Below are positions 8,232 to 60,001 of a stretch of DNA of 64,000 bases, piece after piece; position 1 is the stretch's first letter; each line of letters begins with the position of its first letter. Origin of the DNA: Patescibacteria group bacterium (GTDB lineage Bacteria > Patescibacteriota > Patescibacteriia > UBA1558 > GWA2-36-10). Position numbers and translations under genes: made by a program. Below the pieces are notes generated by a model, which worked only from the letters and a program-made list of their open reading frames with translations, searched no databases and was not told the origin of the DNA. The DNA lies in contig JBAZKN010000001.1 in NCBI GenBank assembly GCA_041650755.1, positions 70,796-134,795 on the forward strand, written 5' to 3'.

Positions 8232-8921
8232 TTAGCGAAACAGAGCTGTTTGCCTGGGCGCTACGATGCCTGGGTCCAGCGCGATGCTGGCGACTTGAGC
8301 GCCGAGGTATCGGCGCTCTACTAGCACCCAGACGATCTTTTTGGTTCCGTCCGGCTCTTGCGTATTGAACGCATTGTTGCTGAACTCCACCACTTGCCTG
8401 CGGCTATCGCACAAAGGCTCTCTTCCTCTTTGTTCTTGGAAGCACAGAACGCCACTGTCGCTGACAGGGATGGTCGAAGAGTCAGCGGTCGAGATGTACA
8501 GGGTGATTGTGCCTCGGCGGAAGAGAATCTTGTAGTCGTCTGGCATGGTGATGGCCAGGCGATACACTACCAGGTTGGGGTTGGTGACCAACTTGGACAG
8601 GAGATAGTCGGAGCGGGGATGCGGGGTGATAGGCTTACCATCCGGGTCAACGCCAGTCATCAATTGCTTGATACCGGCCATAGATGCTGGGACACCGCGA
8701 TCCCTGAACAACTGGTCAAGCTCTTGTATGCGCCTGTCGTACCATTGCTTGGGATCGCCCCAGCCGCTGTTCATGGTAGAGAAGATCACGTCTGGAGTCA
8801 GGCTAGGTAGCGGAGTGTAGGTGATGTCCGTCGGCCTGCCAGCGATTGCCGCTGTGTCTAGCAGTCCAAGGCCGCAAAAGACAATCAGCGACAGGATGAG
8901 GAAAGCGACTCTTCTCAACAT
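8232..8921 (-). CDS. Secreted hypothetical protein (230 aa) on GC island B
   Basis: AGGAG RBS 7 nt before ATG at 8921; signal peptide MLRRVAFLILSLIVFCGLGLLDTAAIAG; about 60% GC. Confidence 0.65.
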   Translation of the reverse strand: MLRRVAFLILSLIVFCGLGLLDTAAIAGRPTDITYTPLPSLTPDVIFSTMNSGWGDPKQWYDRRIQELDQLFRDRGVPASMAGIKQLMTGVDPDGKPITPHPRSDYLLSKLVTNPNLVVYRLAITMPDDYKILFRRGTITLYISTADSSTIPVSDSGVLCFQEQRGREPLCDSRRQVVEFSNNAFNTQEPDGTKKIVWVLVERRYLGAQVASIALDPGIVAPRQTALFR

Positions 8922-9127
8922 GTTGGTACTCCTTCTGCCCCTTTGGGGCAATGAGGGGTTGCTTTTCAAAGAACCGATTGGCTGGCTTTTGGCCGCCATT
9001 ATGTCAACTCTCGTTAACTCTTTATATAAATACTTACGTGGTTTTTTGTCAAGACTTGACCTTTTGCATAGACAAAAACCCCACTAAGTGAGGCCTTTTA
9101 TCATTATTTGGGTTATTTTCTTGGGAT

Positions 9128-9385: not shown

Positions 9386-9793
9386 TCAGCAGGAGACGGC
9401 GAAGAAAGTCTCGATGTACTCGACAAAGCGCATGACGTTGAAAGGTTTGGACCAGAAAGGCACGCGATAGAGTTCTTGCAGGTGGCGGACTTGATCGGTG
9501 TGGTGGTGTCCAGTCAGGATGACCGAACACTTCTGAGACATCTCCATGTCATAAACCAGACCACAGAGCCAGCCGCCATCCACTTCGCTGGTTTCGGCGA
9601 TGATCACATCGGGGAATGGCCTGGTGCTGGCCAAAAGCCCGATGACGTCGACTGGGTGGAGCACCATCTTGGGGCTAGTGCTGCCCTTGGGCAGCACTAT
9701 GTTGGTCAGTACTTCGTGACCATTGCCTTCAAGAGCCTGGCACAGAGCGGTGATGGTGCTGTGGTCTTTGTCAAAAATGAAGATGCGCGACAT
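9386..9793 (-). CDS. Stand-alone atypical receiver (REC)-like protein with Glu replacing the phospho-acceptor Asp
   Basis: GGAGG RBS; IFIFDKDH (acid pocket), PDVIIAETSEVDGG (Asp to Glu), SVILTGHH (conserved Thr), WSKPF (conserved Lys); GC-rich. Confidence 0.55.
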   Translation of the reverse strand: MSRIFIFDKDHSTITALCQALEGNGHEVLTNIVLPKGSTSPKMVLHPVDVIGLLASTRPFPDVIIAETSEVDGGWLCGLVYDMEMSQKCSVILTGHHHTDQVRHLQELYRVPFWSKPFNVMRFVEYIETFFAVSC

Positions 9794-9971: not shown

Positions 9972-9980
9972 AAAAGCCAT

Positions 9981-10203: not shown

Positions 10204-10269
10204 AGTGTATTATATTGTTAACAATTAGCAATATATCATATTACCCATATTTTGTCAATAGGGGATAAA

Positions 10270-23801: not shown

Positions 23802-24854
23802 ATGTTGAGGAGATTTTTCCGCAAATTTTCTAAGGATATGGGAATTGACCTGGGTACGGCCAATACTTTGGTTTATGTGCGCGATCAAGGCATTGTGATC
23901 AATGAACCCAGTGTGGTAGCAGTCAATAATCGAACAGAAAAAATTATTGCTGTCGGGGAGGATGCCAAAATAATGTTGGGCAAAACCCCAATGCATATTA
24001 CCGTGACCAAGCCTTTGGTGGACGGGGTGATTTCGGATTTTGAGGTATCAGAAAAAATGATCAAGCATTTTATTGAAAAAGTGCATCGTGAATCTATGAC
24101 TTTTGTCCCGCGACCTAGGGTGGTAGTAGCTATTCCTCTGGATGTCACCGAAGTAGAGCGTAAAGCAGTAGAAGATGCGGTCTTGCGTGCTGGTGCGGCG
24201 GAAGTCTTTTTGATTGAAGAGCCAATGGCCGCAGCTATTGGCGCTGGCTTGCCTATTCAAGAAGCGGCCGGCAGCATGATAGTGGACATTGGTGGCGGCA
24301 CTACGGAAATAGCCATTATTTCTTTGTCGGGCATTGTGTCTTGGAAATCATTGAAATTGGCCGGCGATAAACTAGATGACGCCATTATCCAATATGCCCG
24401 CGATAAATTTAATTTACTCTTGGGCCAACGGACAGCGGAAAAAATAAAAATGCAAGTTGGCTCGGTTTTACCACAAGATCAGACACTGGAGACTATTATG
24501 CGCGGTCGTGATTTATTGACCGGCTTGCCCAAAGAGGTGCATATTACCGATGCTAATATTCGCGAAGCTATTGCCAAACAAATTAAGTTGATTATTGATA
24601 ACATCAAAAATACGATTGAAACAGCGCCGCCAGAGCTAGTATCTGATTTATATGAGCGAGGCATGGTTTTGACTGGTGGCGGAGCTATGCTGCGAGGGTT
24701 GGATGAGTTGATTGCCAAAGAAACGAAAATGCCGGTTCATATTACTGATGAGCCATTGACGGCAGTGGTCAGGGGCACTGGTAAGGTTTTGGATGATCTG
24801 GAAAATTTAAAAGAAATTTTATTGCCCCCAACTCGAGATATTGGTTTGGGCTAA
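23802..24854 (+). CDS. mreB: Rod-shape-determining protein MreB
   Basis: N-terminus MLRRFFRKFSKDMGIDLGTANTLVYV parallels E. coli MreB; actin-fold motifs. Confidence 0.9.
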   Translation: MLRRFFRKFSKDMGIDLGTANTLVYVRDQGIVINEPSVVAVNNRTEKIIAVGEDAKIMLGKTPMHITVTKPLVDGVISDFEVSEKMIKHFIEKVHRESMTFVPRPRVVVAIPLDVTEVERKAVEDAVLRAGAAEVFLIEEPMAAAIGAGLPIQEAAGSMIVDIGGGTTEIAIISLSGIVSWKSLKLAGDKLDDAIIQYARDKFNLLLGQRTAEKIKMQVGSVLPQDQTLETIMRGRDLLTGLPKEVHITDANIREAIAKQIKLIIDNIKNTIETAPPELVSDLYERGMVLTGGGAMLRGLDELIAKETKMPVHITDEPLTAVVRGTGKVLDDLENLKEILLPPTRDIGLG

Positions 24855-28032: not shown

Positions 28033-28494
28033 ATGGATAAAAAAGTTTTGACTCAAGAGGGCCTAAATAATCTGAAAGCTGAACTAGAGGATTTGAAGAC
28101 CAATAAGCGTAAAGAAGTGGCCGAGCGTATTAAAATTGCCAAAGAATACGGTGATTTATCAGAAAACGCCGAATATCAAGAAGCTAAGGATCAGCAGGGG
28201 TATGTTGAGGGGCGTATTTTAGAATTAGAAGCCTTGATAAAAACAGCTATTTTAGCCGATAAGCAGGTTAATGATCACAATATTGTAGGCATTGGCTCTC
28301 ATGTTGCCGTGCAGCGCGATGGGCAGACGCTAAATTTTACTATTGTAGGTAGTACCGAAGCTGATCCGGCCAACAAAAAAATTTCCCTAGAATCACCTTT
28401 GGGTCAAGCTTTGCTTAATAAAAAAATAGGCGATGAAGTAGAAGTAAAATTGCCCGGGGGTATAGCAATATATAAAATTTTGGATATCAAATAA
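28033..28494 (+). CDS. greA: Transcription elongation factor GreA
   Basis: GDLSENAEYQEAKDQQ coiled-coil finger; 153 aa. Confidence 0.9.
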   Translation: MDKKVLTQEGLNNLKAELEDLKTNKRKEVAERIKIAKEYGDLSENAEYQEAKDQQGYVEGRILELEALIKTAILADKQVNDHNIVGIGSHVAVQRDGQTLNFTIVGSTEADPANKKISLESPLGQALLNKKIGDEVEVKLPGGIAIYKILDIK

Positions 28495-29507
28495 TGTTTA
28501 TCAAGAAAATCGGCATTGATTTAGGCACGACTTATACTCTGGTTTATATCCCTAAGCGAGGGATTGTTATCAATGAGCCGTCAGTAGTCGCTATTTCTGT
28601 GTTTGATAAAAAAGTTTTGGCAGTAGGGGATGAGGCCAAAGAAATGATTGGTCGCACGCCGGATTCTATAGTAGCTGCTCGGCCTTTGAAAAATGGAGTG
28701 ATTGCTGATTATAAAACCACGGAAAGCATGCTGCGCTATTTTATTGGCAAAGCAGTTGGCGGCATGAAGATTTTTAGACCGGAAGTAATGATTGCCGTGC
28801 CGGCCGGTATTACATCAACCGAGCGGCGAGCAGTGATTGATGCTACTTTGGCGGCTGGCGCCAAAGCAGCCTTTATTATCAAAGAGCCTATTGCGGCTGC
28901 CATTGGTGCTGATATTCCGATTGGTTCAGCTTCCGGGCACATGATCGTTGACATGGGTGGCGGCACTTCCGAGGTGGCTGTGATTTCTTTGGGTGGTATT
29001 GTGGCTAATACTTCAGTGCGTATCGGCGGTAATCGCTATGATGCGGCTATTTCCGAATTTATTAAAAAGAAATATAATTTAGCTATTGGCGAAAGAACTG
29101 CTGAAGAAATTAAAATCAAAGCTGGTTCAGCTCAGTTTTTGCCAAAAGGTGAAAAATTATATATTGACATCAAGGGCCGCGATATGATCAGTGGCCTGCC
29201 GCGCACCATCACAGTAGGCTCGGATGATGTGACAGAGGCTTTGCAAAATGAGCTGCAGGGCTTGATATCAGCCGTTAAATCTGTCTTGTATCAAACGCCG
29301 CCAGAATTATCAGCTGACATTATGGATAAGGGCATGGTTTTATCGGGCGGCACTGCTTTGTTGCGCAACATGGACAAGCTCTTGTCTCAAGCCACTGGCG
29401 TGCCAGCCTATGTGGCCGAAGATGCTTTATTGTGCGTGGCTAGAGGCACGGGTATTGCCCTAGAAAACCTAGAGTCATATAAGCGTAGCATATTATCAGC
29501 TAAATAG
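28494..29507 (+). CDS. Second MreB/Mbl-like actin homologue
   Basis: IGIDLGTTYTLVYI, DMGGGTSEVAVIS, SGGTALL motifs; paralogue of 23802..24854. Confidence 0.85.
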   Translation: MFIKKIGIDLGTTYTLVYIPKRGIVINEPSVVAISVFDKKVLAVGDEAKEMIGRTPDSIVAARPLKNGVIADYKTTESMLRYFIGKAVGGMKIFRPEVMIAVPAGITSTERRAVIDATLAAGAKAAFIIKEPIAAAIGADIPIGSASGHMIVDMGGGTSEVAVISLGGIVANTSVRIGGNRYDAAISEFIKKKYNLAIGERTAEEIKIKAGSAQFLPKGEKLYIDIKGRDMISGLPRTITVGSDDVTEALQNELQGLISAVKSVLYQTPPELSADIMDKGMVLSGGTALLRNMDKLLSQATGVPAYVAEDALLCVARGTGIALENLESYKRSILSAK

Positions 29508-41915: not shown

Positions 41916-42413
41916 TTGATTTTTTCATTTCTTTATCCTATGCCTAATTTTAGCAAATTTTTACCAACTGAGGAAGGTCTTGATTTGCTGATTTATCCTA
42001 AAGAAGCGGCCTACAAGCTGTATTTGTGGCTATTATTTTTACTGGTAGCTTTTTTTATGATGTATCCGCTTTGGCATTTGGGTAGGCCGGGCATATTTTT
42101 ATGGCTTACCATGACTGCGTTTATATTATTGGCGATTGCTAATCATTTTTTACGCCGTTTTAGCTACTATATATTAAGCACCAATAAACTTTGGCATGTT
42201 TTTTATATCAAGGCTGATAATATTAGGATCAGGGGGTCGATAGATAGGGGATTGATCATTGCTTTAGAAAAGTGCGGCGACCATGATATTTTGGTGCTGA
42301 CCAAACAAAATCGATATTATTTAAAAGATATAAAACAGCGCGATCAGGTTTACGCGGCATTAGTGACAAAATTAAATATAGCGGCTTACCAAAAAGACGT
42401 AAATTTGTTATAA
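41916..42413 (+). CDS. Hypothetical membrane protein (2 TM plus PH-like C-terminus)
   Basis: 165-aa ORF; hydrophobic pair at residues 35-80. Confidence 0.5.
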   Translation: MIFSFLYPMPNFSKFLPTEEGLDLLIYPKEAAYKLYLWLLFLLVAFFMMYPLWHLGRPGIFLWLTMTAFILLAIANHFLRRFSYYILSTNKLWHVFYIKADNIRIRGSIDRGLIIALEKCGDHDILVLTKQNRYYLKDIKQRDQVYAALVTKLNIAAYQKDVNLL

Positions 42414-42420
42414 TATAGCC

Positions 42421-42888
42421 ATGGATAATCCAAAAAATTTGGATCAAAATTTTATATCTAAACCTGAAAATATTACTACTCCAGATCAAGTGGATGGTTT
42501 TGAATCAGGGCCGACTTCGGCTGCCCTGGAGCAGCCTACTCCGGCTCTGGCAACCAGCGCTCCAGCTGTGCCGGATTTAGATAAAATAGCCAGCGCTCCA
42601 GCCCAGCCCACCATTGTTTTGGAAAAAGTCGAAAATATTTTAGCTCGGGACATGGACAAGGTTTTTTTGTCTATGGATCTAGCTACGCAAGCCAAATTTA
42701 AAGCCAAGGGTGAAGAAACAGCCGTAGCTATTACTAATTTATTGCAAAAAACTAAGGTTCAAGTTAGGAAAATTATTAACCTGATTGTTGATTGGTTGCG
42801 TTTGGTGCCTAGTATCAACAAATATTACCTCGAACAGGAAGCTAAGCTAAAGGCCGAAGAAATTATTCGTTTACATAAAAATCAATAA
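42421..42888 (+). CDS. Hypothetical Ala/Pro-rich protein
   Basis: 155-aa ORF directly upstream of the large ATPase gene. Confidence 0.5.
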   Translation: MDNPKNLDQNFISKPENITTPDQVDGFESGPTSAALEQPTPALATSAPAVPDLDKIASAPAQPTIVLEKVENILARDMDKVFLSMDLATQAKFKAKGEETAVAITNLLQKTKVQVRKIINLIVDWLRLVPSINKYYLEQEAKLKAEEIIRLHKNQ

Positions 42889-42897: not shown

Positions 42898-45354
42898 ATG
42901 GAATTTACCGTTGAAAATATAGCTGTTGTCATTAGCCTGGTTATTATTCTTAGTATTATTTTTCCCGTGATCGCAAATTATCAAAAAAATAAGGTTGATA
43001 AGAATTTAAAATTGGACATGTTATTGATTAAAGTGCCGAAATATACCAAGCAAGAAAAAGAAGAGTTGTCCAAACAATACATTGAACAGACTTTAGGTAA
43101 AATTGAAAATTTTTTTTCTGCCCTAGCTGGCCTCAAGGCCGAACATCCTTTTTTGGGGCAAGCCAAAGAAATTTTTTCCCTAGATATTGTTTCGGTAGAT
43201 GGTTTTATAAATTTTTACGCGGCCGTGCCGCCAAAATTTAAAGACTTCTTTATTGCCCAGCTGCAGGCTGTCTATCCCAAAATTTATGTAGAAGAAGTGG
43301 TTGATTATAATATTTTTCAGCCACAAGGACAGGTCTTGGCTGGCAATTTATCTTTTGCCAATGATTTTACTTTACCCATCAAGACATATAAGACTTTTGA
43401 AAATGACCCCTTAGAGGGAATTACCAATACCTTAAGTAAGCTGACCAACGACGAATCGGCTGTTGTGCAATATGTCTTTAAATCTGCCCCCAAAAAATGG
43501 CATCAACGCGGCCGTCAACTGGCTCAAAAAATGCAAGCCGGAGCTACTTTTGCCGATGCTATTAAACAGGTTGGTGGCACTTCTTTTTTTGATAAATTGG
43601 AAAAAACAGGTAGTTTTTTTGGCAGCTTTTTTGCTACCAGTAAAAAAGAGGATGAGCAAAAAAAGAAATCCCTGGAAGTCAAACAGCCCTTGTCAGCCAT
43701 GGAACAAGAGCGGGCCAAAAGCCTAGAAGCAAAAACTTCTAAAGCTGGTTTGGATGTCAATATTCGCATCGTAGTTTCAACCAGAAGCTTGGAGCGCTCC
43801 AAGGCAGTTTTACTGGACGTTCTCAATAGCTACAATCAATATAATATTTATGAGTTTGGCAATCGTTTTCAAGCCAGTATACCGCGCCACCCGGATACTA
43901 TTATTGAGTACTTGATTTATCGACATTTTTCAAACAAGCGTAAACTTTTGCTCAACGCTGAGGAAATGGTCAGCGTGGTGCATCTGCCTTTACCGACCAC
44001 TGAAACGCCAAATATTGATTGGCTAGAAGCTGTCAAGGCGCCACCGCCCAGCAGTCTGCCCAGCGAAGGCATTATTTTGGGCAAAAGCATTTATCGTGGC
44101 AAAGAAACTTTGGTGCGCATCAAGGATGCTGATCGTCGGCGACACATGTACGAAATCGGCCAGACCGGTACTGGTAAGTCTGCCTTTATGGAAAGCTTGA
44201 TTAAACAGGATATTGAAGCTGGCAAAGGATTGTGCGTGATTGATCCGCACGGTGAATTGGTAGAAAGATGCTTAACCTATATACCAAAAGAAAGAGCCGA
44301 AGACGTGATTGTTTTTGATCCATCGGATACTGATCGGCCAGTAGCCATTAACATGTTGGAATATGATACCGATGAACAGAAGACTTTTGTGATCAACGAA
44401 ATGATCGCTATCTTTGATAAGCTTTATGATCTGAAAGCTACTGGTGGGCCGATGTTTGAGCAATATATGCGTAATGCAATGCTTTTGGTGATGGACGACA
44501 AAGATTCGGGAGCGACTTTGTTGGAAGTGCCGAGAGTCTTGTCAGATGAAGCTTACCGCAAGCACAAGTTGAGCAAGGTCAAGAACCGCTTAGTCAAAGA
44601 TTTTTGGGAAAAAGAAGCGCAAAAAGCCGGCGGTGAAGCGTCCCTAGCCAATATGGTACCCTATATCACTAGCAAGCTCACGCCTTTTATTGCCAATGAT
44701 ATCATCCGGCCGATTATTGCCCAGCAAAAAAGCGCTTTCAATTTTCGTGAAGCAATGGATAGCAAAAAGATTATCATGATCAATCTATCCAAGGGCAAAA
44801 TTGGTGACATGAATAGTAGCCTTTTGGGCATGATTATTATTGGTAAACTACTATTTGCCGCTTTGAGCAGAGCGGATTATACTGAAGAGCAACGCAATGA
44901 TTTTTATCTCTATATTGATGAGTTCCAAAATTATACTACCGATAGTATCGCTATTATTTTATCCGAAGCCAGAAAATACAAACTGAATTTAATTATCGCT
45001 CATCAGTATATCGCTCAGCTGGTAAAAAATAACGACACCAAGATTCGAGATGCTGTTTTTGGCAATGTCGGCACTATCATCGCTTATCGTCTAGGCGTAG
45101 AGGACGCAGAGGTGATTGCCAAGCAAATGGCCCCGGTGGTTACTGAATATGACCTGATCAATATGCCAAAATTTACGGCTTATATAAAATTATTGATTGA
45201 TAATGCCAATCCGCCAGCCTTTAATTTTAATCCCATTAGGCCGGAAAAAGGCAACTTTGAGCTAGCGGCGGCCATCAAACAATTGTCTCGATTAAAATAT
45301 GGCCGTGATAGAAAAACAGTAGAAGACGAGGTTCAGCAAAGGATTATCATTTAG
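42898..45354 (+). CDS. Membrane-anchored FtsK/HerA-superfamily (VirB4/VirD4/DUF87-like) P-loop ATPase, fused N-domain plus ATPase
   Basis: N-terminal TM; Walker A IGQTGTGKS followed by VIDPHGEL (DPHGE signature); Walker B YIDEFQNY; ARKYKLNLIIAHQYIAQL; FGNVGTIIAYRLG. Confidence 0.75.
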   Translation: MEFTVENIAVVISLVIILSIIFPVIANYQKNKVDKNLKLDMLLIKVPKYTKQEKEELSKQYIEQTLGKIENFFSALAGLKAEHPFLGQAKEIFSLDIVSVDGFINFYAAVPPKFKDFFIAQLQAVYPKIYVEEVVDYNIFQPQGQVLAGNLSFANDFTLPIKTYKTFENDPLEGITNTLSKLTNDESAVVQYVFKSAPKKWHQRGRQLAQKMQAGATFADAIKQVGGTSFFDKLEKTGSFFGSFFATSKKEDEQKKKSLEVKQPLSAMEQERAKSLEAKTSKAGLDVNIRIVVSTRSLERSKAVLLDVLNSYNQYNIYEFGNRFQASIPRHPDTIIEYLIYRHFSNKRKLLLNAEEMVSVVHLPLPTTETPNIDWLEAVKAPPPSSLPSEGIILGKSIYRGKETLVRIKDADRRRHMYEIGQTGTGKSAFMESLIKQDIEAGKGLCVIDPHGELVERCLTYIPKERAEDVIVFDPSDTDRPVAINMLEYDTDEQKTFVINEMIAIFDKLYDLKATGGPMFEQYMRNAMLLVMDDKDSGATLLEVPRVLSDEAYRKHKLSKVKNRLVKDFWEKEAQKAGGEASLANMVPYITSKLTPFIANDIIRPIIAQQKSAFNFREAMDSKKIIMINLSKGKIGDMNSSLLGMIIIGKLLFAALSRADYTEEQRNDFYLYIDEFQNYTTDSIAIILSEARKYKLNLIIAHQYIAQLVKNNDTKIRDAVFGNVGTIIAYRLGVEDAEVIAKQMAPVVTEYDLINMPKFTAYIKLLIDNANPPAFNFNPIRPEKGNFELAAAIKQLSRLKYGRDRKTVEDEVQQRIII

Positions 45355-45485: not shown

Positions 45486-46073
45486 ATGCCAAAAACCAAA
45501 AAAATAAAAGAATTAGAATCCTTGATATATAATTTAGAGTTGGAGCTGAAAAAGACTAAACTGATTTTGGGTGAATTATCTGGCAAAAATACCAAGCAGG
45601 CATTGGATTATAGTTTAAAAGCAGCCGAGCTTGGCGCAAGCTCTCAAGATGATGAAGGTCTGGTGATCGAAGGCGTGTTTAATGGTCAGATAATGATCGG
45701 TCCAGACGGCAAGCAGTATTCTGTGCCGGCTAACTATGCTTCCAAGTCCAAACTAGTGGAAGGCGATATTTTGAAATTAACTATAGATCGTCAAGGCGCA
45801 TTTATCTATAAGCAGATAGCCCCAGTAGAAAGGACCCGCTTAGTTGGTCATTTGGTCAAAGACAAGGCTTTGGGTGAGTATGTGGTTTTGGCTGGTGACA
45901 AAATATACCGGGTCTTACTGGCCAGCATCACTTACTTTAAGGGTGAAGAGGGCGATGAAGTGGTGATTCTGGTCCCCAAGGAAGCTGATAGTATCTGGGC
46001 AGCGGTTGAAAATATTATTCGTAGCAAAGCCCGCCGTGATGCCGAAGGAGATGATCTGGGAATTAGCTTATAG
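45486..46073 (+). CDS. Hypothetical protein (N-terminal coiled coil)
   Basis: 195-aa ORF. Confidence 0.5.
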   Translation: MPKTKKIKELESLIYNLELELKKTKLILGELSGKNTKQALDYSLKAAELGASSQDDEGLVIEGVFNGQIMIGPDGKQYSVPANYASKSKLVEGDILKLTIDRQGAFIYKQIAPVERTRLVGHLVKDKALGEYVVLAGDKIYRVLLASITYFKGEEGDEVVILVPKEADSIWAAVENIIRSKARRDAEGDDLGISL

Positions 46074-47626: not shown

Positions 47627-47700
47627 TGCCGGATCGTCTAATGGTAGGACGTCAGGTTCTGGCCCTGATAATCTAGGTTCGATTCCTAGTCCGGCAGCCA
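47627..47700 (+). tRNA. tRNA-Gln (anticodon CTG)
   Basis: Acceptor tgccgga/tccggca with U1-A72; anticodon loop ttCTGgc; T-arm ctagg ttcgatt cctag; encoded CCA. Confidence 0.85.
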
Positions 47701-47712: not shown

Positions 47713-48408
47713 ATGAAGTATAAGATTCAAGGAAAAAATATTAATTTGGTATTAAAAGAAGATGTTTTTTCCCCATCTATTCACGGTTCGTCAGCTTTAG
47801 CAGAAAATATAAAAGTCAATCGCGGTGAATCGGTTCTAGATCTCGGTACCGGCACGGGTATCCTAGCTATTTTAGCTGCAAAATTAGGCGGTCAGGTTAC
47901 TGCGGTGGATGTACTACCAAAAGCTGTGGCATTGGCTAAGATAAATTTTAAAAAAAATCATGTTACAATTAGATTGAAACATGGTAATTTGTTTAGGCCT
48001 GTTATCAAAAATAAATATGATGTAATTATTGCTAATATTCCGCAAGAAAATTTGTCTCCTAAAATTATAAAATCTGTGCGTAAAGAAATTTTTATAGGTA
48101 TGCATGGTGGCAAGTATGGAAACGAAATTTTATTAAACGTTTTAAAAAATGCTCCTAAACATATGCACAAACTGTCCAGATTGTATGTGGTGATTTATTC
48201 AATGAGTAATTTTAGAAAAAGCTTACAAACAATTTATAAATTATATCAAGCAAAACTTATACATTTTTATACTGGGCCAGTCAAAAATTTTATTTATGAT
48301 GATTTAGACTGGTATGAGAGTGAATCTAGAAGTGGTCGCATAAATATTTATAAAAAAGGTAATAAATATTTTGCAGATCTTTTTGTTTTTGAATTAACAT
48401 TAAAATAG
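47713..48408 (+). CDS. Class I SAM-dependent methyltransferase (MTS/HemK-like small domain)
   Basis: VLDLGTGTGILAI motif I; DVIIANIPQ motif IV. Confidence 0.7.
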   Translation: MKYKIQGKNINLVLKEDVFSPSIHGSSALAENIKVNRGESVLDLGTGTGILAILAAKLGGQVTAVDVLPKAVALAKINFKKNHVTIRLKHGNLFRPVIKNKYDVIIANIPQENLSPKIIKSVRKEIFIGMHGGKYGNEILLNVLKNAPKHMHKLSRLYVVIYSMSNFRKSLQTIYKLYQAKLIHFYTGPVKNFIYDDLDWYESESRSGRINIYKKGNKYFADLFVFELTLK

Positions 48409-48441
48409 CCTAATTTAGATTCTCGAAGCGAAGCGTAGACC

Positions 48442-48472
48442 ATGCTGAATAGCGGGGCTAGCCCCCGAGCCA
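48442..48472 (+). repeat. tRNA-Gln(TTG) 3'-end mimic repeat (R4) at the edge of GC island C
   Basis: atgctgaatagcggggCTAGCCCCCGAGCCA versus the tRNA 3' end CTAGTCCCCGAGCCA (14/15); homologous to R2/R3 at 7420-7613. Confidence 0.65.
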
Positions 48473-48513
48473 AAAAAATTTGAAGCCCCAAGTTTTATTT
48501 TTTTTATGAAAAA

Positions 48514-48545
48514 AAGTTGGCCACAAGGGGCCAACCGTCGTGAAG
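48514..48545 (-). terminator. Rho-independent terminator of the island C gene
   Basis: gttggcc acaagg ggccaac with a T-run on the minus strand. Confidence 0.65.
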
Positions 48546-48570
48546 CAAGCTAGCACAGGCAGTGTTGGAC

Positions 48571-48861: not shown

Positions 48862-48971
48862 GAGTTTCCTCCCTGGTTGGGGGACACACACTGGGGCAAA
48901 GACTATACATTATATAGCTTAATAAATAATAAAAATATTGTCAAAATCATTATTCTTGATATAATCAAACA

Positions 48972-52746: not shown

Positions 52747-54429
52747 ATGAATAAATATCAGTCCAGTTCTCATAAGGTTATGTCTGCCCAGAGAGTTAAG
52801 ATTACTTTTGTGGCCATTATTATTTTGGCTATTTTGGGTTGCTTGGTGGCCCTGCCAAAACCAGGCTTTATACCCAATAATAATTGGTTTAGGCAGTTTA
52901 AAATACACTTGGGCCTTGATTTGCAGGGCGGCACCCATCTGGTTTATCAAGCAGATGTATCACAAGTGCCGGATAATGAGCGTCGCGATAGAGTGGAAGC
53001 CTTGCGGGACGTGATTGAACGCCGGGTAAACGCCTATGGCGTGTCTGAACCGGTTGTCCAGACCAATTATAGCGGCGATAATTATCGTATTATTGTTGAG
53101 CTGGCCGGGGTGACCGATGTCAATCAAGCTATCAGTATTATCGACAAGACTCCTTTGCTCGAATTCAAGACACAAGGCCAGGCTCCTATTGATAATAATG
53201 ACCAGAATGCCGTTCGTGATAAAGCCAACGACATATTACAGCGAGTACTGAAGGGCGAAGACTTTGCTGAGCTAGCCAAGCAATATAGTGAGGATCCAGT
53301 TTCAGCTGCTCAAGGCGGAGATTTGCCTTGGGTGACCAAAGGCAAATTTGTCCCAGAATTTGATACAGCCATTTTTGATCAGCTAAAGACAGGCGAGGTA
53401 GATAAACAATTAGTTGAATCTCAATTTGGCTATCATATTATCAAAAAAATAGAGGAGAGAACCAATGACAGTGGCGAAAAGGAAGTCCATGCCGCCCATA
53501 TTTTGATAAAAAAAATTGACGCTGATATGGTCTGGGAGGATACTTCTTTGAGTGGCCGCAATATCAAAAAAGCCGAGTTAAGCTTTGATCAGAATACTCA
53601 AGAGCCCTTGGTCTTAATTAACTTTGATGACCAGGGTAAAGAAATTTTTGCTGATCTGACCACTGCCAACGTCGGTAAGCCAATCGCCATATTTTTGGAT
53701 GGAGTTTTACGCTCTGAGCCGGTTGTGCAAGAAGCTATTACTGACGGAAGTGCCCAGATTTCCGGAAAATTCACCATCAAAGAAGCCAAACAGCTCGTCA
53801 AAGACTTGAATTTAGGCGCCCTGCCTGTGCCAATAAAACTAGTGACTCAACAAACAGTTGGCCCTACTTTGGGGCAAGTGTCGCTAGACAAAAGTTTGAT
53901 AGCTGGCATTATTGGTTTTTTGGCAGCTGCTTTATTTATGCTCATTTTGTATCGTTTGCCGGGTATTTTAGCAGTGGTGGCCTTGGGGCTATATACTATT
54001 TTGAGTTTGAGTATTTTTGAAATTATACCAGTAACCATGACCATGGCCGGCATTGCTGGTTTTATTCTATCTATCGGCATGGCTGTGGATGCCAATATTT
54101 TAATATTTGAAAGAACCAAAGAAGAGTTATATAAAGGCAAAACTTTATGGACTGCCATTGAAGAAGGATTCAGCAGAGCTTGGCCATCAATTCGCGATTC
54201 AAATGTTTCCTCAATTATTACTTGTATAATTTTGGCTTGGTTTGGCACTTCGATTATCAGAGGTTTTGCTATTACCTTGGGGATAGGTATCTTGGTGTCC
54301 ATGTTTTCCGCCATTACCGTGACCCGCACCTTCTTGTACTTAGTTGTTAACAAAAAATTAGAAAATAAATTGAGTTGGTTTGGCGTACATATTACTAAAA
54401 CCACCGAAGAACAACAAAACCATGTATAG
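52747..54429 (+). CDS. secD: Protein translocase subunit SecD with a parvulin-like (PpiC-type PPIase) insertion
   Basis: LGLDLQGGTHLVYQAD and the SecD TM bundle; inserted segment (about 53180-53530) EDFAELAKQYSEDPVSAAQGGDLPWVTKGKFVPEFDTAIF...SQFGYHIIKKIEER...VHAAHILIKK. Confidence 0.85.
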   Translation: MNKYQSSSHKVMSAQRVKITFVAIIILAILGCLVALPKPGFIPNNNWFRQFKIHLGLDLQGGTHLVYQADVSQVPDNERRDRVEALRDVIERRVNAYGVSEPVVQTNYSGDNYRIIVELAGVTDVNQAISIIDKTPLLEFKTQGQAPIDNNDQNAVRDKANDILQRVLKGEDFAELAKQYSEDPVSAAQGGDLPWVTKGKFVPEFDTAIFDQLKTGEVDKQLVESQFGYHIIKKIEERTNDSGEKEVHAAHILIKKIDADMVWEDTSLSGRNIKKAELSFDQNTQEPLVLINFDDQGKEIFADLTTANVGKPIAIFLDGVLRSEPVVQEAITDGSAQISGKFTIKEAKQLVKDLNLGALPVPIKLVTQQTVGPTLGQVSLDKSLIAGIIGFLAAALFMLILYRLPGILAVVALGLYTILSLSIFEIIPVTMTMAGIAGFILSIGMAVDANILIFERTKEELYKGKTLWTAIEEGFSRAWPSIRDSNVSSIITCIILAWFGTSIIRGFAITLGIGILVSMFSAITVTRTFLYLVVNKKLENKLSWFGVHITKTTEEQQNHV

Positions 54430-55330
54430 AATTATTCAAAAAAAAGCGCTTTGGTTTTCCATTTCAGCTATTGTCTGCGGAGCATCTCTGTTGGCTTTAT
54501 TGATCTGGGGACTAAGGCCTGGCATTGATTTTACCGGCGGTAGCTTGCTGGAAGTTTCTTATTCTCAAGCTAGACCCGGCTTCCAGGCAGTAGAGGAAGC
54601 GCTTAAAGATGTTCAGCTCAAGGACCTCAAAATCCAGCCCAGCGGCGATAGAGACTATATCTTAAGATTTGAAAGTATTGATGAGACACAGCACCAAACT
54701 ATTTTATCCAAGCTGCAGGATATTAAGCTGGATAACATCAATGATAATAAGCTGACCGAAAATCGCTTTGAATCTATTGGGCCCACTATCGGCGTAGAGC
54801 TAAAAAATAAAGCTATCCAATCCATTATTGTGGTTTTGATCTGTATTTTACTTTATATTGCTTATGCTTTTAGAAAAGTTTCCAAACCAGTAGAATCCTG
54901 GAAATATGGCGTGGCAGCCATCATCGCTTTGCTGCACGACGTGATTGTGGTGTCTGGTGTATTTGCGATTCTCGGCTACTTTGCCGGGATAGAGATAGAT
55001 AGCTTATTTGTGACTGCTTTATTGACTGTCTTAGGTTTTTCTGTGCACGATACCATAGTAACCTTTGATCGTATTAGGGAAAATTTGTTCAGAAGTCGTA
55101 ATTATGATGATTTCGAGGACATTATCAACTCCAGTGTCAACGAAACAATCATTAGGTCTTTAAATACCTCGTTGACCACGCTTTTAGCTTTGCTGGCAAT
55201 TTATATTTTTGGCGGGGAAAGCACCAGATACTTTGTCTTGGCTCTAATTATTGGTATTATTACCGGTACCTACTCATCTATCTTTATTGCTTCACCAATT
55301 GTTTTATTGTTTAATAATAAAAATAAATAA
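54422..55330 (+). CDS. secF: Protein translocase subunit SecF
   Basis: SecF TM topology; LDFTGGSLLEVSY; start MYRIIQKK overlaps the secD stop by 8 nt. Confidence 0.85.
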   Translation: MYRIIQKKALWFSISAIVCGASLLALLIWGLRPGIDFTGGSLLEVSYSQARPGFQAVEEALKDVQLKDLKIQPSGDRDYILRFESIDETQHQTILSKLQDIKLDNINDNKLTENRFESIGPTIGVELKNKAIQSIIVVLICILLYIAYAFRKVSKPVESWKYGVAAIIALLHDVIVVSGVFAILGYFAGIEIDSLFVTALLTVLGFSVHDTIVTFDRIRENLFRSRNYDDFEDIINSSVNETIIRSLNTSLTTLLALLAIYIFGGESTRYFVLALIIGIITGTYSSIFIASPIVLLFNNKNK

Positions 55331-55368
55331 TCGCATAATATTTTTCACTTTCTGTCAAGAAAATATAT

Positions 55369-55391
55369 ATACCCCCAAAATAAAGGGGGTA
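55369..55391 (+). terminator. Rho-independent terminator after secF
   Basis: tacccccaaaataaagggggta followed by a T-containing tail. Confidence 0.6.
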
Positions 55392-55422
55392 TTCAGTTTA
55401 AAGAAAATTATTATTTTTATTT

Positions 55423-55440
55423 AATATTAGCCAAAAAATG
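55423..55440 (+). repeat. Conserved intergenic motif core AATATTAGCCAAAA, copy 2
   Basis: Shares the 14-nt core with 45360..45381 and 63760..63781. Confidence 0.5.
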
Positions 55441-55496
55441 ACATTATTTTAAACTCTATTTTGCGTTTTTTCTATTTGAGGGTTGACTTATTTTAA

Positions 55497-55550
55497 AAAA
55501 TGTGTTATTCTATGAAATGTTTAAAAAGTAAACACATTTTTAAACGTTTA
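55497..55550 (+). promoter_or_regulatory. Nested palindromic operator-like site immediately upstream of the sigma-r4/HARE-HTH gene
   Basis: aaatgtttaaaaa...tttttaaacgttt (13-nt arms, 1 mismatch) plus aaatgtgtt/aacacattt; ends 11 nt before the ATG. Confidence 0.5.
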
Positions 55551-55560
55551 AGTAAAACAT

Positions 55561-56667
55561 ATGGAATCTATATTGGATCAAGTGATTACTGCCAGACATT
55601 TGTCAAATTTGGCAAATTTTAATCCCCATCAAACCCTAGATAACATCTTGGCGGCTTTGTCAGACCGCGAACGCGAGATTATTAAGTTGCGTCATGGTTT
55701 ATCTGGTTATGAAAAAAAGACCTTGGAGGAAATTGGCCAAAAATACAAAGTCACTCGTGAAAGGGTAAGGCAGATTGAGAATACTGCTCTCAAGAAAATC
55801 ACCAAAAATTTTGATCAAACCTATCTTAAGGAAATAGAAGATATTGCCAATGGCATTTTATCTGAACATGGCGGCATGATGTCAGAAACCAATTTAATCA
55901 AAGAATTATTGACCGTGCCCGGTAATACGCCGGAGAATCAGGCAGCTATTCGCTTTATCTTAAATCAATTACTGAAAAACCGTTTTCACTTCATCAAAGA
56001 ATCCAAGGATTACCATAATTTTTGGAAAACTCCAGAGTCTTCCCAAGGTTTTTTTGAAGAAACCATTGATCATATTGCTAAATTGATCCATGGCCATGGT
56101 ACGCCATTGCCCTTAGAACATCTTTTATCAAAAATTCAACAGCATGATTTTTATAAAGATAATGATGATTTGACTGATCGAGTGATTGTCAACTTTATTT
56201 ACATCACCAAAAAACTAAAGGCCAACCCTTACGATGAGTGGGGTTTGGCAGAATGGTCAGCCATCAGTCCGCGTCGCATGAACGACAAAATTTATCTGGT
56301 CTTGAAAAAGGAAAATCGCCCCATGCACTTTACGGAAATTGCCGATATGATCAATAAAATGCAGTTTGATCAGCGTCAAGCCTATCCGGCCACCATCCAT
56401 AATGAATTGATTTTAGATGATAAGTACGTTTTGGTGGGCCGTGGTATTTATGCCTTATCAGAATGGGGCTATAAGCCGGGCGTGGTCAGCGACGTGATCG
56501 CTGAAATTTTACAAGCCAATCCACAAGGCTTAAGTAAAAAGGAGATTATTGCCGAAGTATTAAAAAAGCGCTTAATCAAAGAAACCACTATTACTTTAGC
56601 CCTGATGAACAAAGATCGTTTTATCCGCAATGAACGAGGTCGCTACACTTTGAAAACTAATGCTTAA
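55561..56667 (+). CDS. Sigma-70 region-4-like HTH protein fused to tandem HARE-HTH domains
   Basis: LSDREREIIKLRHGL...TLEEIGQKYKVTRERVRQIENTALKKI (sigma r4); later PYDEWGLAEWS and LVGRGIYALSEWGY (HARE-HTH hallmark). Confidence 0.65.
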   Translation: MESILDQVITARHLSNLANFNPHQTLDNILAALSDREREIIKLRHGLSGYEKKTLEEIGQKYKVTRERVRQIENTALKKITKNFDQTYLKEIEDIANGILSEHGGMMSETNLIKELLTVPGNTPENQAAIRFILNQLLKNRFHFIKESKDYHNFWKTPESSQGFFEETIDHIAKLIHGHGTPLPLEHLLSKIQQHDFYKDNDDLTDRVIVNFIYITKKLKANPYDEWGLAEWSAISPRRMNDKIYLVLKKENRPMHFTEIADMINKMQFDQRQAYPATIHNELILDDKYVLVGRGIYALSEWGYKPGVVSDVIAEILQANPQGLSKKEIIAEVLKKRLIKETTITLALMNKDRFIRNERGRYTLKTNA

Positions 56668-56786
56668 ATGAGATTTTATTACAAGAACAACCGGTTTCCA
56701 CTTGGGGCGGTTGTTTTTGTTTCCTACTACTTTAAAAATTTTGCAAAAAAAGGTATAATATACTGGTAGCCCATCAAAAAATAGCT

Positions 56787-58289
56787 ATGAATTTTAGCGT
56801 TGAGGTCAATAATTTTATCAATACACTACTGACTATAGGTTCTTTGCCACCGGATATAGCTTTTATTTATTTAATGACCCACTATATCTGGCCAATTTAT
56901 GTTGTCATGATTTTATGGATGGCTTATGATGTTTGGCTGACGTCTCTGCAGAATAAGTGGTTTGCTACTCACAAGTTCATCCTTTTGGCTATTGATATAC
57001 CTAAAGATACCGAACAGACACCAAAGGCTATTGAGCAACTATTTGCCACCCTATCAGGCGCTCATACGCCCATCAGTACTCGCGATAAATATGCTGGCAT
57101 GTTTCAGCTGTCATTTTCTTTTGAAATTGTCAGTATAGACGGCTATATTCAATTTTTGATTCGCACTCCCAGCCACTGGCGGGATCTGGTAGAGAGTTCC
57201 ATTTATTCACAGTATCCCGATGCAGAGATCACTGAAGTGGAGGATTATACCACTGATTTGCCGCGTAAATTTCCCGACGACAAATACAATATGTGGGGTG
57301 CGGAAATAGTTTTGGTAAATAAAGATGTTTATCCCATAAAAACTTATATTGATTTTGAAGATGCGGTTTCCGGAGAATTCAAAGATCCAATGGCCTCAAT
57401 TTTGGAAACTATGAGTAAAATACAGGCCGGTGAACAGGTCTGGGTGCAGCTGATAGTCAGACCGACTGACCACCTCTGGACTAATCGTAGCAAAGCTGAA
57501 GCCGACAAATTGGCTGGTAAAAAGGTTAAAGCACAGAAAGGTTTATTGGAAAGACTGTTTGGCCCTCTGTTTGGTTTATTTTTCCTGTCTGGCGGCGACT
57601 CTATTTTTTGGCCAACTGGCGCTGAATCCAAATCAGAAAAAAAGGCCAATGAACCAATTAGCTTGATGCTGTATATGACCCCGGGAGAGAGAATAAAGAT
57701 TGAAGCAGTAGAAAAAAAGGCATCCAAAATAGGCTTTCAATGCAAAATTCGCTTGGTCTATCTATCGCCCAAAGAGCAGTATAATCCCGGCAGGGTAGTT
57801 TCTTCGGTGTTTGGTTCGCTGAAACAGTTTAGCACCATGCATTTGAATTCTTTTAAGCCCGATGCTAAAACCAAGACCAAAATAGAGTGGATTATGGTCA
57901 AAACCAGGACCAATTGGCGCCGTACAAACCTCATTAGAGCCTATAAGAGCCGCAGCGGCATCATCGGACATGGCTATTTTATATTAAATACCGAAGAACT
58001 AGCTACTTTGTGGCACTTTCCTAGCAAATTTATTCGCACGCCTTTATTGCAAAAAACAGAGTCCAAAAAAGCCGAACCGCCAGCTTCTTTGCCTATTATG
58101 TCTGGAATTTTTGATACCCAGACCGAGCAGGCAAGCGCTGAATTACGCCAGCAGCTAAAAACAGTGCCGGAATTCAATATACCCCTGGACAATACTTATT
58201 TTGAGGAGCGCTTTGCCAAAGACAAAAGCCAGGTCAAGCCAAGACATACAAAAAACGAGCCACCGACTAATCTACCCGTTACCAAATAA
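56787..58289 (+). CDS. Membrane-anchored N-domain protein, paralogue of the N-terminal half of 42898..45354
   Basis: 2 TM at the N-terminus; FSFEIVSIDGYIQFLIRTPSHWRDLVESSIYSQYPDAEITEVEDY aligns with FSLDIVSVDGFINFYAAVPPKFKDFFIAQLQAVYPKIYVEEVVDY. Confidence 0.65.
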   Translation: MNFSVEVNNFINTLLTIGSLPPDIAFIYLMTHYIWPIYVVMILWMAYDVWLTSLQNKWFATHKFILLAIDIPKDTEQTPKAIEQLFATLSGAHTPISTRDKYAGMFQLSFSFEIVSIDGYIQFLIRTPSHWRDLVESSIYSQYPDAEITEVEDYTTDLPRKFPDDKYNMWGAEIVLVNKDVYPIKTYIDFEDAVSGEFKDPMASILETMSKIQAGEQVWVQLIVRPTDHLWTNRSKAEADKLAGKKVKAQKGLLERLFGPLFGLFFLSGGDSIFWPTGAESKSEKKANEPISLMLYMTPGERIKIEAVEKKASKIGFQCKIRLVYLSPKEQYNPGRVVSSVFGSLKQFSTMHLNSFKPDAKTKTKIEWIMVKTRTNWRRTNLIRAYKSRSGIIGHGYFILNTEELATLWHFPSKFIRTPLLQKTESKKAEPPASLPIMSGIFDTQTEQASAELRQQLKTVPEFNIPLDNTYFEERFAKDKSQVKPRHTKNEPPTNLPVTK

Positions 58290-58291
58290 AT

Positions 58292-60001
58292 ATGAATGTT
58301 AATGATATAACAACTTTTGCTGAGACTAATTTCCGTAATTCACGGGTAAAGTTTGGTATTAAGACAGACGATAGGCGCCGACATATGTATATTATCGGTA
58401 AAACTGGCATGGGTAAATCAACCTTGTTGGAAAACATGATCATTCAGGACATCCAGGCCGGCAAAGGAGTTTGCGTAGTCGATCCACATGGTGAGCTGGT
58501 TGAAAAAGTGATTGATTTTATACCACAGAACCGCATCAATGATGTAATTTATTTCAATCCCGCTGACCTTGAATACCCGATAGCCTTTAATGTGCTGGAA
58601 AGCGTCAACATCGAGCAACGCCATTTGGTAGTTTCTGGATTGATCGGTGTCTTTAAAAAGATCTGGGCTGATTCCTGGGGCCCAAGACTAGAATATGTTC
58701 TGCATCATGCAATTTCTGCTTTGCTGGAATATCCTGGCTCGACCCTTTTGGGCATTATGCGCATGCTGACGGACAAAAAGTTTCGTGAGCGGGTAGTTGA
58801 TAAAGTGACCGATCCAGTGGTAAAGGCCTTTTGGGTTGATGAATATTCTCGTTATCCAGACAATCTCAAGGCCGAAGCCATTGCTCCGATTCAAAACAAG
58901 GTAGGCCGATTTTTATCCTCTTCTTTGATTAGAAACGTCCTGGGCCAGGTCAGATCTTCCTTCTCAATGCGGGAAATTATGGATGGCAAAAAAATATTGT
59001 TACTAAATTTATCCAAAGGCAGGGTGGGCGAGGATAACTCGGCTTTACTTGGCTCCATGATGATCACCAAGATTCAGCTGGCTGCCATGAGCCGGATAGA
59101 TACCCCGGAACAGGAGCGCAATGATTTTTACCTTTATGTTGATGAATTTCAAAATTTTGCCACCCAAAGTTTTGCCAATATTCTATCAGAAGCGCGTAAG
59201 TATAGGCTGAACTTGATCATGGCCCACCAATATATTGATCAATTAAAATGGGGTAATGATGAAACGGTCAAGTCGGCAGTCTTTGGTAATGTCGGCACCA
59301 TCATTGCTTTCCGCGTTGGTGCTACTGATGCGGAATTTCTGGAAAAAGAATTTTTCCCGGTTTTTACTCAAGAAGATTTGGTCAATCTGTCTAAATACGA
59401 AATTTATCTAAAATTAATGGTTGATGGCGTAGCCACTGAGCCATTTTCAGGAGTAGGCTTGCCGCCGGTAATATTACCTGCCGAATCAATCGGCATCAAA
59501 GAAAAGGTGATCAAAGTATCCAGAGAAAGATATGCCAAGCCCCGCGAGATTATTGAAGATAAAATCGCTCGTTGGGCAGAAAATAAAGAGGGCAAAGAGC
59601 CAGAAAAAAACAGCAAAGAAGACAGAGTAAAAAAATCCAAAAAAAAAGGCGATGAGGAAAGAAAATCTGGTTCCAAAAAGCCAAAAATCAGCAAAATAAT
59701 AAATTGCACTTACTGCGGTAAAGAAGCGGAAATCAATTTTGAGCCCGATCCTACTAGGCCAGTATACTGCGATGATTGTTTGATACTGGCCAAACAAGGA
59801 AAAATTCCCTCTCCTACCAGTATCAAAATACTCAAAGAAGAGTCAGCCAGTAAAAAAGTAGATGATGATCAGACCAAAGAACAGTTTATCTCTCTATCGG
59901 AAGCAATAAAATCAAATAATCTTCATTCTGGCAAAGAAAAAAGTAAGCAAGTGGCCGAGGATGAGCATCTGCTTCAGCCAGGACAAATTGTTAAGTTTTA
60001 A
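58292..60001 (+). CDS. FtsK/HerA-superfamily (VirB4/VirD4/DUF87-like) ATPase with C-terminal Lys-rich linker and zinc ribbon
   Basis: IIGKTGMGKST Walker A; VVDPHGELVE; YVDEFQNF Walker B; ARKYRLNLIMAHQYIDQL; C-terminus CTYCGKEAEINFEPDPTRPVYCDDC. Confidence 0.75.
   Translation: MNVNDITTFAETNFRNSRVKFGIKTDDRRRHMYIIGKTGMGKSTLLENMIIQDIQAGKGVCVVDPHGELVEKVIDFIPQNRINDVIYFNPADLEYPIAFNVLESVNIEQRHLVVSGLIGVFKKIWADSWGPRLEYVLHHAISALLEYPGSTLLGIMRMLTDKKFRERVVDKVTDPVVKAFWVDEYSRYPDNLKAEAIAPIQNKVGRFLSSSLIRNVLGQVRSSFSMREIMDGKKILLLNLSKGRVGEDNSALLGSMMITKIQLAAMSRIDTPEQERNDFYLYVDEFQNFATQSFANILSEARKYRLNLIMAHQYIDQLKWGNDETVKSAVFGNVGTIIAFRVGATDAEFLEKEFFPVFTQEDLVNLSKYEIYLKLMVDGVATEPFSGVGLPPVILPAESIGIKEKVIKVSRERYAKPREIIEDKIARWAENKEGKEPEKNSKEDRVKKSKKKGDEERKSGSKKPKISKIINCTYCGKEAEINFEPDPTRPVYCDDCLILAKQGKIPSPTSIKILKEESASKKVDDDQTKEQFISLSEAIKSNNLHSGKEKSKQVAEDEHLLQPGQIVKF

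Follow-up and report, generated by a model that had tools for sequence, protein, structure and literature searches.

Introduction

Classical coupling proteins (T4CPs) of type IV secretion systems (T4SSs), such as TrwB of R388, VirD4, DotL, Cagbeta and TrsK of pGO1, carry a short two-helix transmembrane (TM) domain directly before the ATPase. A large part of bacterial diversity belongs to the Patescibacteria, which live at the expense of host cells. To our knowledge, theirs is the only T4SS without which the carrier cannot grow, and no recognised coupling protein or relaxase is adjacent to it. Here we report the analysis of a 64,000-nt stretch of a Patescibacteria genome (the window, to which all positions refer) that encodes two related ATPase loci, one a single fused gene and the other a split gene pair. 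We identify them, with high confidence, as two ancient paralogs that combine a membrane-tethered domain resembling the N-terminal domain (NTD) of VirB4, named DUF8128, with a T4CP-like ATPase.

Quinonero-Coronel et al. (2025; PMC12102498) described a monophyletic chromosomal T4SS of the MPF-FATA-like type (MPF, mating-pair formation), represented by VirB4, in 2,417 of 3,035 Patescibacteria genomes. Table S3 of that study contains VirB3-TrsD-VirB4 clusters, in which TrsD is a separate VirB4-NTD-like gene beside VirB4, as well as one or two t4cp1 hits per genome located far from virB4 and separate FtsK/TcpA-like t4cp2 hits. The orphan-T4CP phenomenon in Patescibacteria is already published. An earlier reading of the window from its letters alone (the sequence-only reading) held that the function of these proteins escapes canonical T4SS annotation, which is not supported, since NCBI names them as T4SS coupling or DNA-binding proteins and T4CP homologs have been counted in PMC12102498. 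The literature searched contains no mention of DUF8128, and we found no published description of its VirB4-like nature, of the fused and split paralogs, of the partner protein of the split pair with sigma region 4 and HARE-HTH domains (sigma4/HARE-HTH), or of the relaxase-adjacent phage and plasmid homologs.

Results

Two paralogs of a membrane-anchored ATPase

Genes of the window are compact and co-directional in a genome with a GC content of about 0.41, and the closest database proteins come from 'Patescibacteria group bacterium' and Komeilibacteria metagenome-assembled genomes (MAGs). The three open reading frames (ORFs) of interest (Table 1) have the coordinates, lengths (818, 500 and 569 aa) and all five motifs quoted in the sequence-only reading. 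In the fused protein these motifs are GQTGTGKS at aa 421, VIDPHGE at 447, IDEFQN at 673, RKYKLNLIIAHQYIAQL at 692 and FGNVGTIIAYRLG at 721, with equivalents at aa 36, 62, 283, 302 and 331 of the split ATPase, whose start codon lies 3 nt past the stop of the preceding N-domain gene. The Walker A and B motifs are intact in both copies (GQTGTGKS and YIDEFQN in the fused protein, GKTGMGKS and YVDEFQN in the split ATPase). In BLASTP comparisons, aa 399-812 of the fused protein share 44% identity over 417 residues with the split ATPase (E 1e-121), and aa 12-388 share 27% identity over ~380 residues with the split N-protein (E 4e-31). These similarities are far beyond chance and confirm the paralogy that had been proposed, and the general architecture of a TM helix, a large N-domain and an ATPase of the FtsK-HerA superfamily holds as well.

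The membrane topology that had been read is supported in part. The fused protein has the single TM helix ascribed to it, a strong hydrophobic segment with acidic flanking residues on its N side and basic ones on its C side; because of these charges, the positive-inside rule predicts an N-out/C-in orientation with both domains in the cytoplasm. In the split N-protein, a single hydrophobic segment stands out (aa 24-42) within a longer hydrophobic stretch (approximately aa 10-50), so that the two TM helices counted there are not established. The split ATPase is devoid of TM helices.

The ATPase is closest to VirD4/TrwB-type coupling proteins

Judged by sequence, the ATPase is an ASCE (additional strand, catalytic glutamate) P-loop protein of the VirB4/VirD4 branch of the FtsK-HerA superfamily that is closest to T4CPs of the VirD4/TrwB type. 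Three Pfam families score above their gathering cut-offs in the fused and split copies, respectively: TrwB_AAD_bind (35.6 and 52.2 bits, cut-off 20.5), T4SS-DNA_transf (32.9 and 34.9 bits, cut-off 20.1) and TraG-D_C (26.6 and 30.2 bits, cut-off 22). DUF87 (Pfam, 34-40 bits) covers the generic ATPase core only, and the NCBIfam model TIGR04272 gives 37 bits on the split ATPase. When all PDB sequences were searched with the family profile, only TrwB (E 1e-5) and DotL (E 6e-4) were matched, and no VirB4 chain appeared at E<=10. An hhalign comparison with TrsK of pGO1 aligned 295 columns, from Walker A through the FGN motif, and the comparison with TrsE aligned the P-loop alone. VirB4 sequence models remained below their cut-offs (TIGR00929, VirB4_CagE, 13.1 bits vs 643; AAA_10, PF12846, 15.7 vs 27.5). 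Thus, the Pfam and PDB-profile searches bear out the coupling-protein resemblance noted in the sequence-only reading.

The proteins also fall outside the HerA equivalog (NF040819, 13.7 bits vs 970), and their N-domain is VirB4-like rather than a HAS barrel. An identity as the large subunit of a phage terminase, named in the sequence-only reading as a possible refutation, was rejected, since the only match, to phrog_2666 (31-34 bits), is confined to ~50 residues around the P-loop.

The N-domain adopts the VirB4 N-terminal fold

Local Pfam, NCBIfam and PADLOC scans returned no match for the N-domain. PF26449 (DUF8128), which the local Pfam scan did not return, is assigned by precomputed annotations to the window proteins P0001 and P0121 and to all listed relatives. 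In a Foldseek comparison with the PDB, the 13 best matches of the N-domain are all TrwK chains, and the next ones appear only at E > 0.02. Its fold is therefore that of the VirB4 NTD, a link that is structural only, and the claimed VirB4 resemblance is upheld by this comparison. None of 27 DUF8128 members matches any VirB4/TraC N-terminal family of Pfam at E<=1, including PF03135 (CagE_TrbE_VirB) and PF11130, and a sequence kinship with TrsD of pGO1 was rejected (hhalign probability 0.1%). The split DUF8128 gene is also distinct from the 'TrsD homologues' of PMC12102498, because those adjoin VirB4.

In the structure of the R388 system, VirB4 dimerises through its N-terminal part, which also touches VirB3, VirB8 and the membrane (review PMC12857230). 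Searching with a standalone N-domain profile, we matched 3,606 representative clusters, the top 150 of which are all standalone proteins of 370-690 aa.

Conservation and phylogeny in Patescibacteria

A scan of species-representative genomes with the family profile produced at least 600 matches, and gene neighbourhoods were read for the best 80. All of these 80 are fused orthologs with 40-72% full-length identity, and they derive from Komeili-, Uhr-, Moran-, Azam-, Sung-, Taylor-, Lipton-, Zambryski-, Buchanan-, Nomura- and Doudnabacteria and from Paceibacterota. Some contig titles (TPA_asm MAGs labelled 'uncultured Gammaproteobacteria', 'Bdellovibrionales' or 'Candidatus Saccharibacteria', in loci L013, L016, L022, L024, L027 and others) are apparently unreliable and were not used for taxonomy. 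Fused and split copies occur together on one contig in other genomes as well.

In a neighbour-joining tree of ATPase domains, built without bootstrap from 72 fused and 8 split copies, phage and plasmid homologs, pGO1 TrsK and TrsE, the fused and split proteins are reciprocally monophyletic, and all Patescibacteria copies cluster apart from the remaining sequences. The median ATPase identity is 57% among fused copies, 70% among split copies and 42% between the two groups. The Walker and downstream motif columns are 95-100% conserved over 80 orthologs and paralogs, and because of this conservation both copies are probably active NTPases. Given the reciprocal monophyly, the spread over many lineages and the housekeeping neighbourhoods, the duplication is ancient, and its two products are under purifying selection as vertically inherited core genes, not parts of a mobile element. 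The presence of the second copy in relatives rules out a recent artefactual duplication, a refutation that the sequence-only reading had itself considered.

Distant homologs on phages and plasmids

The supposed restriction to this lineage could not be sustained. The fused protein matches phrog_5156, a phage family of 'unknown function', over nearly its full length (254 bits, E 4.9e-75; residues 85-814 align with positions 71-806 of the 824 in the profile), and each of the split proteins corresponds to one half of it (E 1.7e-17 for the N-protein). Using tblastn, we found the two-domain architecture outside Patescibacteria at 21-29% identity and 74-86% query coverage in Bacillus phage G (gp156), in about 30 SPO1-like phages and on plasmids of Bacillus, Clostridium botulinum, Streptomyces/Embleya, haloarchaea and Sulfolobus. 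On the B. subtilis plasmid NZ_OX419568.1, the gene for the homolog WP_213380696.1 lies immediately upstream of that for a replication-relaxation protein, after which come a TcpE-family protein and VirB4 (AAA_10, 280 bits). In the SPO1-like phage SP8, the homolog, annotated as 'VirD4 component-like protein', directly precedes a Replic_Relax protein, and in phage G it adjoins a VirB4-like ATPase. Because of these relaxase-type and VirB4 neighbours, the combination of DUF8128 and ATPase holds the place of a genuine coupling protein outside Patescibacteria.

Gene neighbourhoods of the two loci

No VirB4, VirB6, VirB8, relaxase or pilin gene lies beside either locus of the window, in agreement with the sequence-only reading, and the housekeeping nature of the flanking genes noted there is supported by synteny with Pfam-annotated relatives. 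In one relative (L001, 66% identity), two genes for VirB2-like T4SS_pilin proteins (PF18895, 125 and 82 aa) are located at 14987-15750 (equal to 492-1255 of L003), ~2.5 kb downstream of the fused gene in the interval between dnaX and uppS, and are the sole T4SS-related genes seen near these loci. The window contains no homolog of these pilins; its dnaX-uppS interval is occupied by tRNA-Gln(ctg) at 47627-47700, a low-GC methyltransferase gene (47713..48408) and a stretch at 48440-48900.

The split pair has a conserved upstream partner, a protein that combines sigma region 4 (Sigma70_r4, 64.5 bits in Pfam) with a HARE-HTH winged helix (46.6 bits). In a profile search of the PDB, its region 4 matches primary sigma factors (E ~1e-19). 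The sigma4/HARE-HTH gene is directly upstream of the DUF8128 gene in nine of ten independent contexts (it is missing in L096), and this linkage is kept in L094, L095, L099 and L100 despite otherwise unrelated neighbours. The arrangement of this gene with the split pair is repeated, judging by neighbouring locus tags, in five more genomes at NCBI. No similarity was detected between the sigma4/HARE-HTH protein and the Replic_Relax proteins beside the phage and plasmid homologs. The order secD, secF, sigma4/HARE-HTH, DUF8128 and ATPase (52747..60001 in the window) recurs in L003, L007, L015, L094, L099 and L100 with differing downstream genes, and the trio of L095 has no secDF upstream; the association with secDF may be functional or may simply reflect ancestral synteny.

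The zinc finger at the C-terminus of the split ATPase is common, not universal, among relatives. The window encodes another protein with this type of finger, an RGG-like protein of 195 aa (6516..7103, minus strand) with a Gly/Arg-rich N-terminus, two zf_Tbcl_2 CxxC-x17-CxxC fingers (112 bits) and a Lys-rich tail. The finger type common to both proteins suggests a nucleic-acid-binding module.

A small same-strand ORF within 400 nt upstream is the only recurring neighbour feature of the fused gene, found in 50 of ~70 loci with room for it. Homologs of the ORF in the window, o155, occupy the position -1 in 16 fused loci, and a different family of ~142 aa fills the same slot in 21-22 others; jackhmmer gave no connection between the two families, so that we regard o155, a possible lineage-specific accessory protein, as a weak lead. 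The 165-aa ORF upstream of o155 is kept only in the closest relatives (3 loci). The 195-aa ORF that separates the fused gene from dnaX has 57-77% identity in ~16 distant loci of one subclade, which exceeds the conservation of the fused ATPase, and it is always located directly upstream of dnaX; two small beta-rich repeats are apparent in it by eye only.

Other features of the window

The tandem riboswitch aptamers (Table 1) are located upstream of two ORFs without a family match (9386..9793 and 8232..8999, both on the minus strand). The surrounding block, at ~7400-10250, looks like an acquired island because of its GC content (~0.5 vs ~0.41 for the genome) and its start directly after tRNA-Gln(ttg) at 7281-7354. 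Another GC-rich block (0.49), at 4.0-6.0 kb, contains the ORF 4156..5034, which has no family match. The stretch 48440-48900 has a GC content of 0.5-0.67 in a low-GC setting. No Rfam family matches it at E<=1 and its folding z-scores are weak (-1.4 and -2.1), and a structured RNA was rejected. A small minus-strand ORF (with an ATG near 48861, ribosome-binding site GGGAGG, 96 aa, no Pfam match), with a hairpin and a U-run after it, fits the stretch better.

Table 1. Coordinates of the ATPase loci, their neighbours and other features in the 64,000-nt window.
Feature	Position	Strand	Remarks
Fused paralog	42898..45354	+	818 aa; anchor, N-domain and P-loop ATPase in one gene
Fused paralog, TM helix	aa 8-26, nt 42919-42975	+	predicted from hydrophobicity
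Fused paralog, DUF8128/VirB4-NTD-like domain	about aa 36-385, nt 43003-44052	+	~350 aa
Fused paralog, T4CP-like P-loop ATPase	aa 392-818, nt 44071-45351	+	Walker A aa 421-428, Walker B aa 671-677
Split paralog, N-domain gene	56787..58289	+	500 aa; standalone membrane-anchored DUF8128 protein
Split paralog, ATPase gene	58292..60001	+	569 aa; T4CP-like P-loop ATPase aa 1-~425, Lys/Glu-rich linker, zinc finger
Split ATPase, C-terminal treble-clef zinc finger CxxC-x17-CxxC	aa 470-497, nt 59699-59782	+	zf_Tbcl_2 (Pfam), 39.6 bits
Sigma4/HARE-HTH protein, upstream partner of the split pair	55561..56667	+	368 aa; region 4 aa 30-80, HARE-HTH winged helix aa 243-300
o155, small ORF upstream of the fused gene	42421..42888	+	155 aa; 9 nt from the fused gene; no family match (Pfam, NCBIfam)
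165-aa ORF upstream of o155	41916..42413	+	two TM helices; PH_3 17 bits, below cut-off
195-aa ORF upstream of dnaX	45486..46073	+	no family match
Tandem c-di-GMP-II riboswitch aptamers (RF01786)	9974-10057, 10127-10210	-	64.1 and 65.5 bits vs gathering cut-off 53.5
RNase P RNA, bacterial class A	30629-31003	-	190 bits
Two MreB paralogs	23802..24854, 28494..29507	+	flank mreC, mreD, PBP2 gene and greA

Discussion

Proposed function and alternative explanations

Our favoured reading of the function, which we hold tentatively and at somewhat less than even chances, is that both paralogs are substrate-coupling or translocating motors coupled to the chromosomal Gram-positive-type T4SS. By analogy with TrwB and VirD4, each paralog would probably form a membrane-tethered hexameric ring that receives a substrate and pushes it toward the channel in an ATP-driven manner, and the VirB4-like N-domain would probably dock this motor on the inner-membrane platform of the MPF-FATA-like T4SS encoded elsewhere in most Patescibacteria. 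The two paralogs may differ in the substrates or states that they serve. The split copy may be tied to nucleic acid or to the transcription machinery, including RNA polymerase, as suggested by its conserved sigma4/HARE-HTH partner, basic linker and zinc-finger tail. Host interaction and DNA uptake, the examples of a function offered in the sequence-only reading, are conjectural.

A number of observations weigh against a role of these motors in the T4SS. The N-domain shows no sequence signal toward the TrsD, TraC_F_IV or CagE families. Curated NCBIfam models of T4CPs are missed by a wide margin, including SXT_TraD (44.6 and 51.5 bits for the fused and split copies vs a cut-off of 366), the VirD4-like CD1115 family (44.6 and 48.9 bits vs 250) and the TraD families (19-33 bits vs 521-648). 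Neither relaxase nor T4SS genes are associated with the two loci in the window, so that a T4SS of the source genome, if any, is encoded outside it; nor is VirB4, VirB3, VirB6, VirB8, a pilin or a relaxase a conserved neighbour in the 80 fused loci, as analysed by de novo clustering, or in the 10 split loci, which extends the absence of T4SS partners claimed for the window to its relatives. The published survey agrees with this picture, since only 148 of 5,713 T4CP homologs, found in 2,918 Patescibacteria genomes, are near virB4, and relaxases are almost absent (109 in 103 genomes), which leaves a T4CP without its classical substrate (PMC12102498). The 2,918 genomes with T4CP homologs also outnumber the 2,417 with VirB4, a difference that MAG incompleteness could explain. 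Finally, in Southlakia the t4cp gene is non-essential, though the T4SS is essential, for which the authors propose a possible exaptation (PMC12102498), and no recognisable coupling protein was found in the essential Southlakia T4SS by Wang et al. 2023.

The same missing linkage, wider spread of T4CPs than of VirB4 and dispensability in Southlakia would be expected of an autonomous membrane motor, present throughout the Patescibacteria, for the movement or anchoring of DNA or RNA without a T4SS channel, which we consider unlikely but still the strongest competitor, although a redundant pair of paralogs would likewise look individually dispensable. Possible roles of such a translocase include the uptake or handling of host-derived nucleic acids and the tethering of DNA to the membrane, and the sigma4/HARE-HTH protein, together with the zinc-finger tail, may bridge it to RNA polymerase or DNA. 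The cassette of sigma4/HARE-HTH, DUF8128 and ATPase genes, which persists amid differing flanks, the nucleic-acid-type zinc finger and basic linker of the split ATPase, the very high ATPase conservation across classes and the reliance of Patescibacteria on host nucleic acids (bioRxiv 10.64898/2026.06.21.733656) all speak for this explanation. However, no membrane channel partner was identified, and a single TM helix is unable to form a pore alone; all characterised relatives of this ATPase sequence type operate with a T4SS, and the distant homologs of the same architecture are located within conjugation modules. Moreover, the recurring secDF neighbourhood may be ancestral synteny, and the sigma4/HARE-HTH gene could encode a mere transcription factor that shares the operon. 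An extended form of this explanation, in which the VirB4/VirD4-hybrid motor, the sigma4/HARE-HTH protein and the zinc-finger tail make up the core of an undescribed, T4SS-independent nucleic-acid machine in the membranes of all Patescibacteria, is slightly less probable still; its possible job would be the intake or processing of host RNA or DNA by nucleotide-auxotrophic epibionts.

Other explanations fare considerably worse. Anchored DNA pumps that substitute for FtsK/SpoIIIE in clearing or segregating the chromosome at division of ultra-small cells are improbable, given the FtsK_SpoIIIE score (Pfam, 15 bits vs a cut-off of 24), a structural match far weaker than those to VirB4 or TrwB, the missing gamma/KOPS domain and multi-TM N-terminus, and the presence of both a separate FtsK/TcpA-like t4cp2 in Patescibacteria genomes and an annotated ftsK in TM7x. 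The plasmid and phage homologs and the phrog_5156 match could be taken to indicate that the loci descend from an integrated conjugative element or a prophage and survive by chance as a domesticated or decaying relic. This origin is very hard to reconcile with the synteny of both loci with housekeeping genes in many lineages, the conservation of catalytic motifs and the monophyly of Patescibacteria copies relative to the phage and plasmid homologs; in addition, neither locus has an integrase, relaxase or repeat boundary, and the local GC content at both equals that of the genome. Equally remote is an anti-phage defence ATPase of the HerA-like, MADS mad8-like or DndH-like type, which we ruled out as the main explanation, because the matches to mad8 and HerA are limited to the generic ATPase core and the nearby genes include no nuclease, Sir2, methylase or any further effector or partner of such systems; near-universal vertical conservation is also atypical of defence islands.

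The fused and split proteins are the natural candidates for the motor or receptor that is missing from the Patescibacteria T4SS. To the published orphan T4CPs, our analysis adds a VirB4-like docking domain, the existence of two ancient paralogs and a conserved partner of one of them that is of the DNA/RNA-polymerase type, so that the proposed exaptation becomes testable in terms of which paralog docks where and what each of them moves. The architecture could be a living intermediate that keeps an ancestral VirB4-like N-domain on the T4CP lineage, which could connect the VirB4 and VirD4 ATPase families in evolution. Should the motors act independently of the T4SS, they would represent a new kind of translocation system for one of life's major branches.

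Comparison with known systems

The Patescibacteria proteins differ from classical T4CPs in their architecture, with one TM helix and a ~350-aa VirB4-NTD-like domain before the ATPase or with that domain encoded by a separate gene. They differ also in their genomic setting, being encoded by chromosomal, vertically inherited and duplicated genes with no adjacent relaxase or T4SS. Their N-domain has a fold like that of VirB4 proteins, which include TrwK of R388, Thermoanaerobacter VirB4, VirB3-VirB4 fusions and the split TrsD and TrsE of pGO1 and Patescibacteria. Unlike VirB4, they have no VirB4 sequence signal and no adjacent VirB3, VirB6 or VirB8, and the genuine TrsD-VirB4 pair of Patescibacteria is a different locus. 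The archaeal Ced system (NCBIfam CedD) and HerA score far below their cut-offs (600 and 970), and neither a HAS barrel nor the Ced membrane partners are present here. The closest architecture is that of the DUF8128-T4CP-like proteins of Firmicutes plasmids and Bacillus phages, which share their full length with the Patescibacteria copies. Those proteins belong to mobile elements and are encoded beside Replic_Relax or relaxase-type genes and VirB4, whereas the Patescibacteria copies, which lack such partners, form their own clade and are accompanied instead by the sigma4/HARE-HTH protein in the split version and by a small ORF in the fused one.

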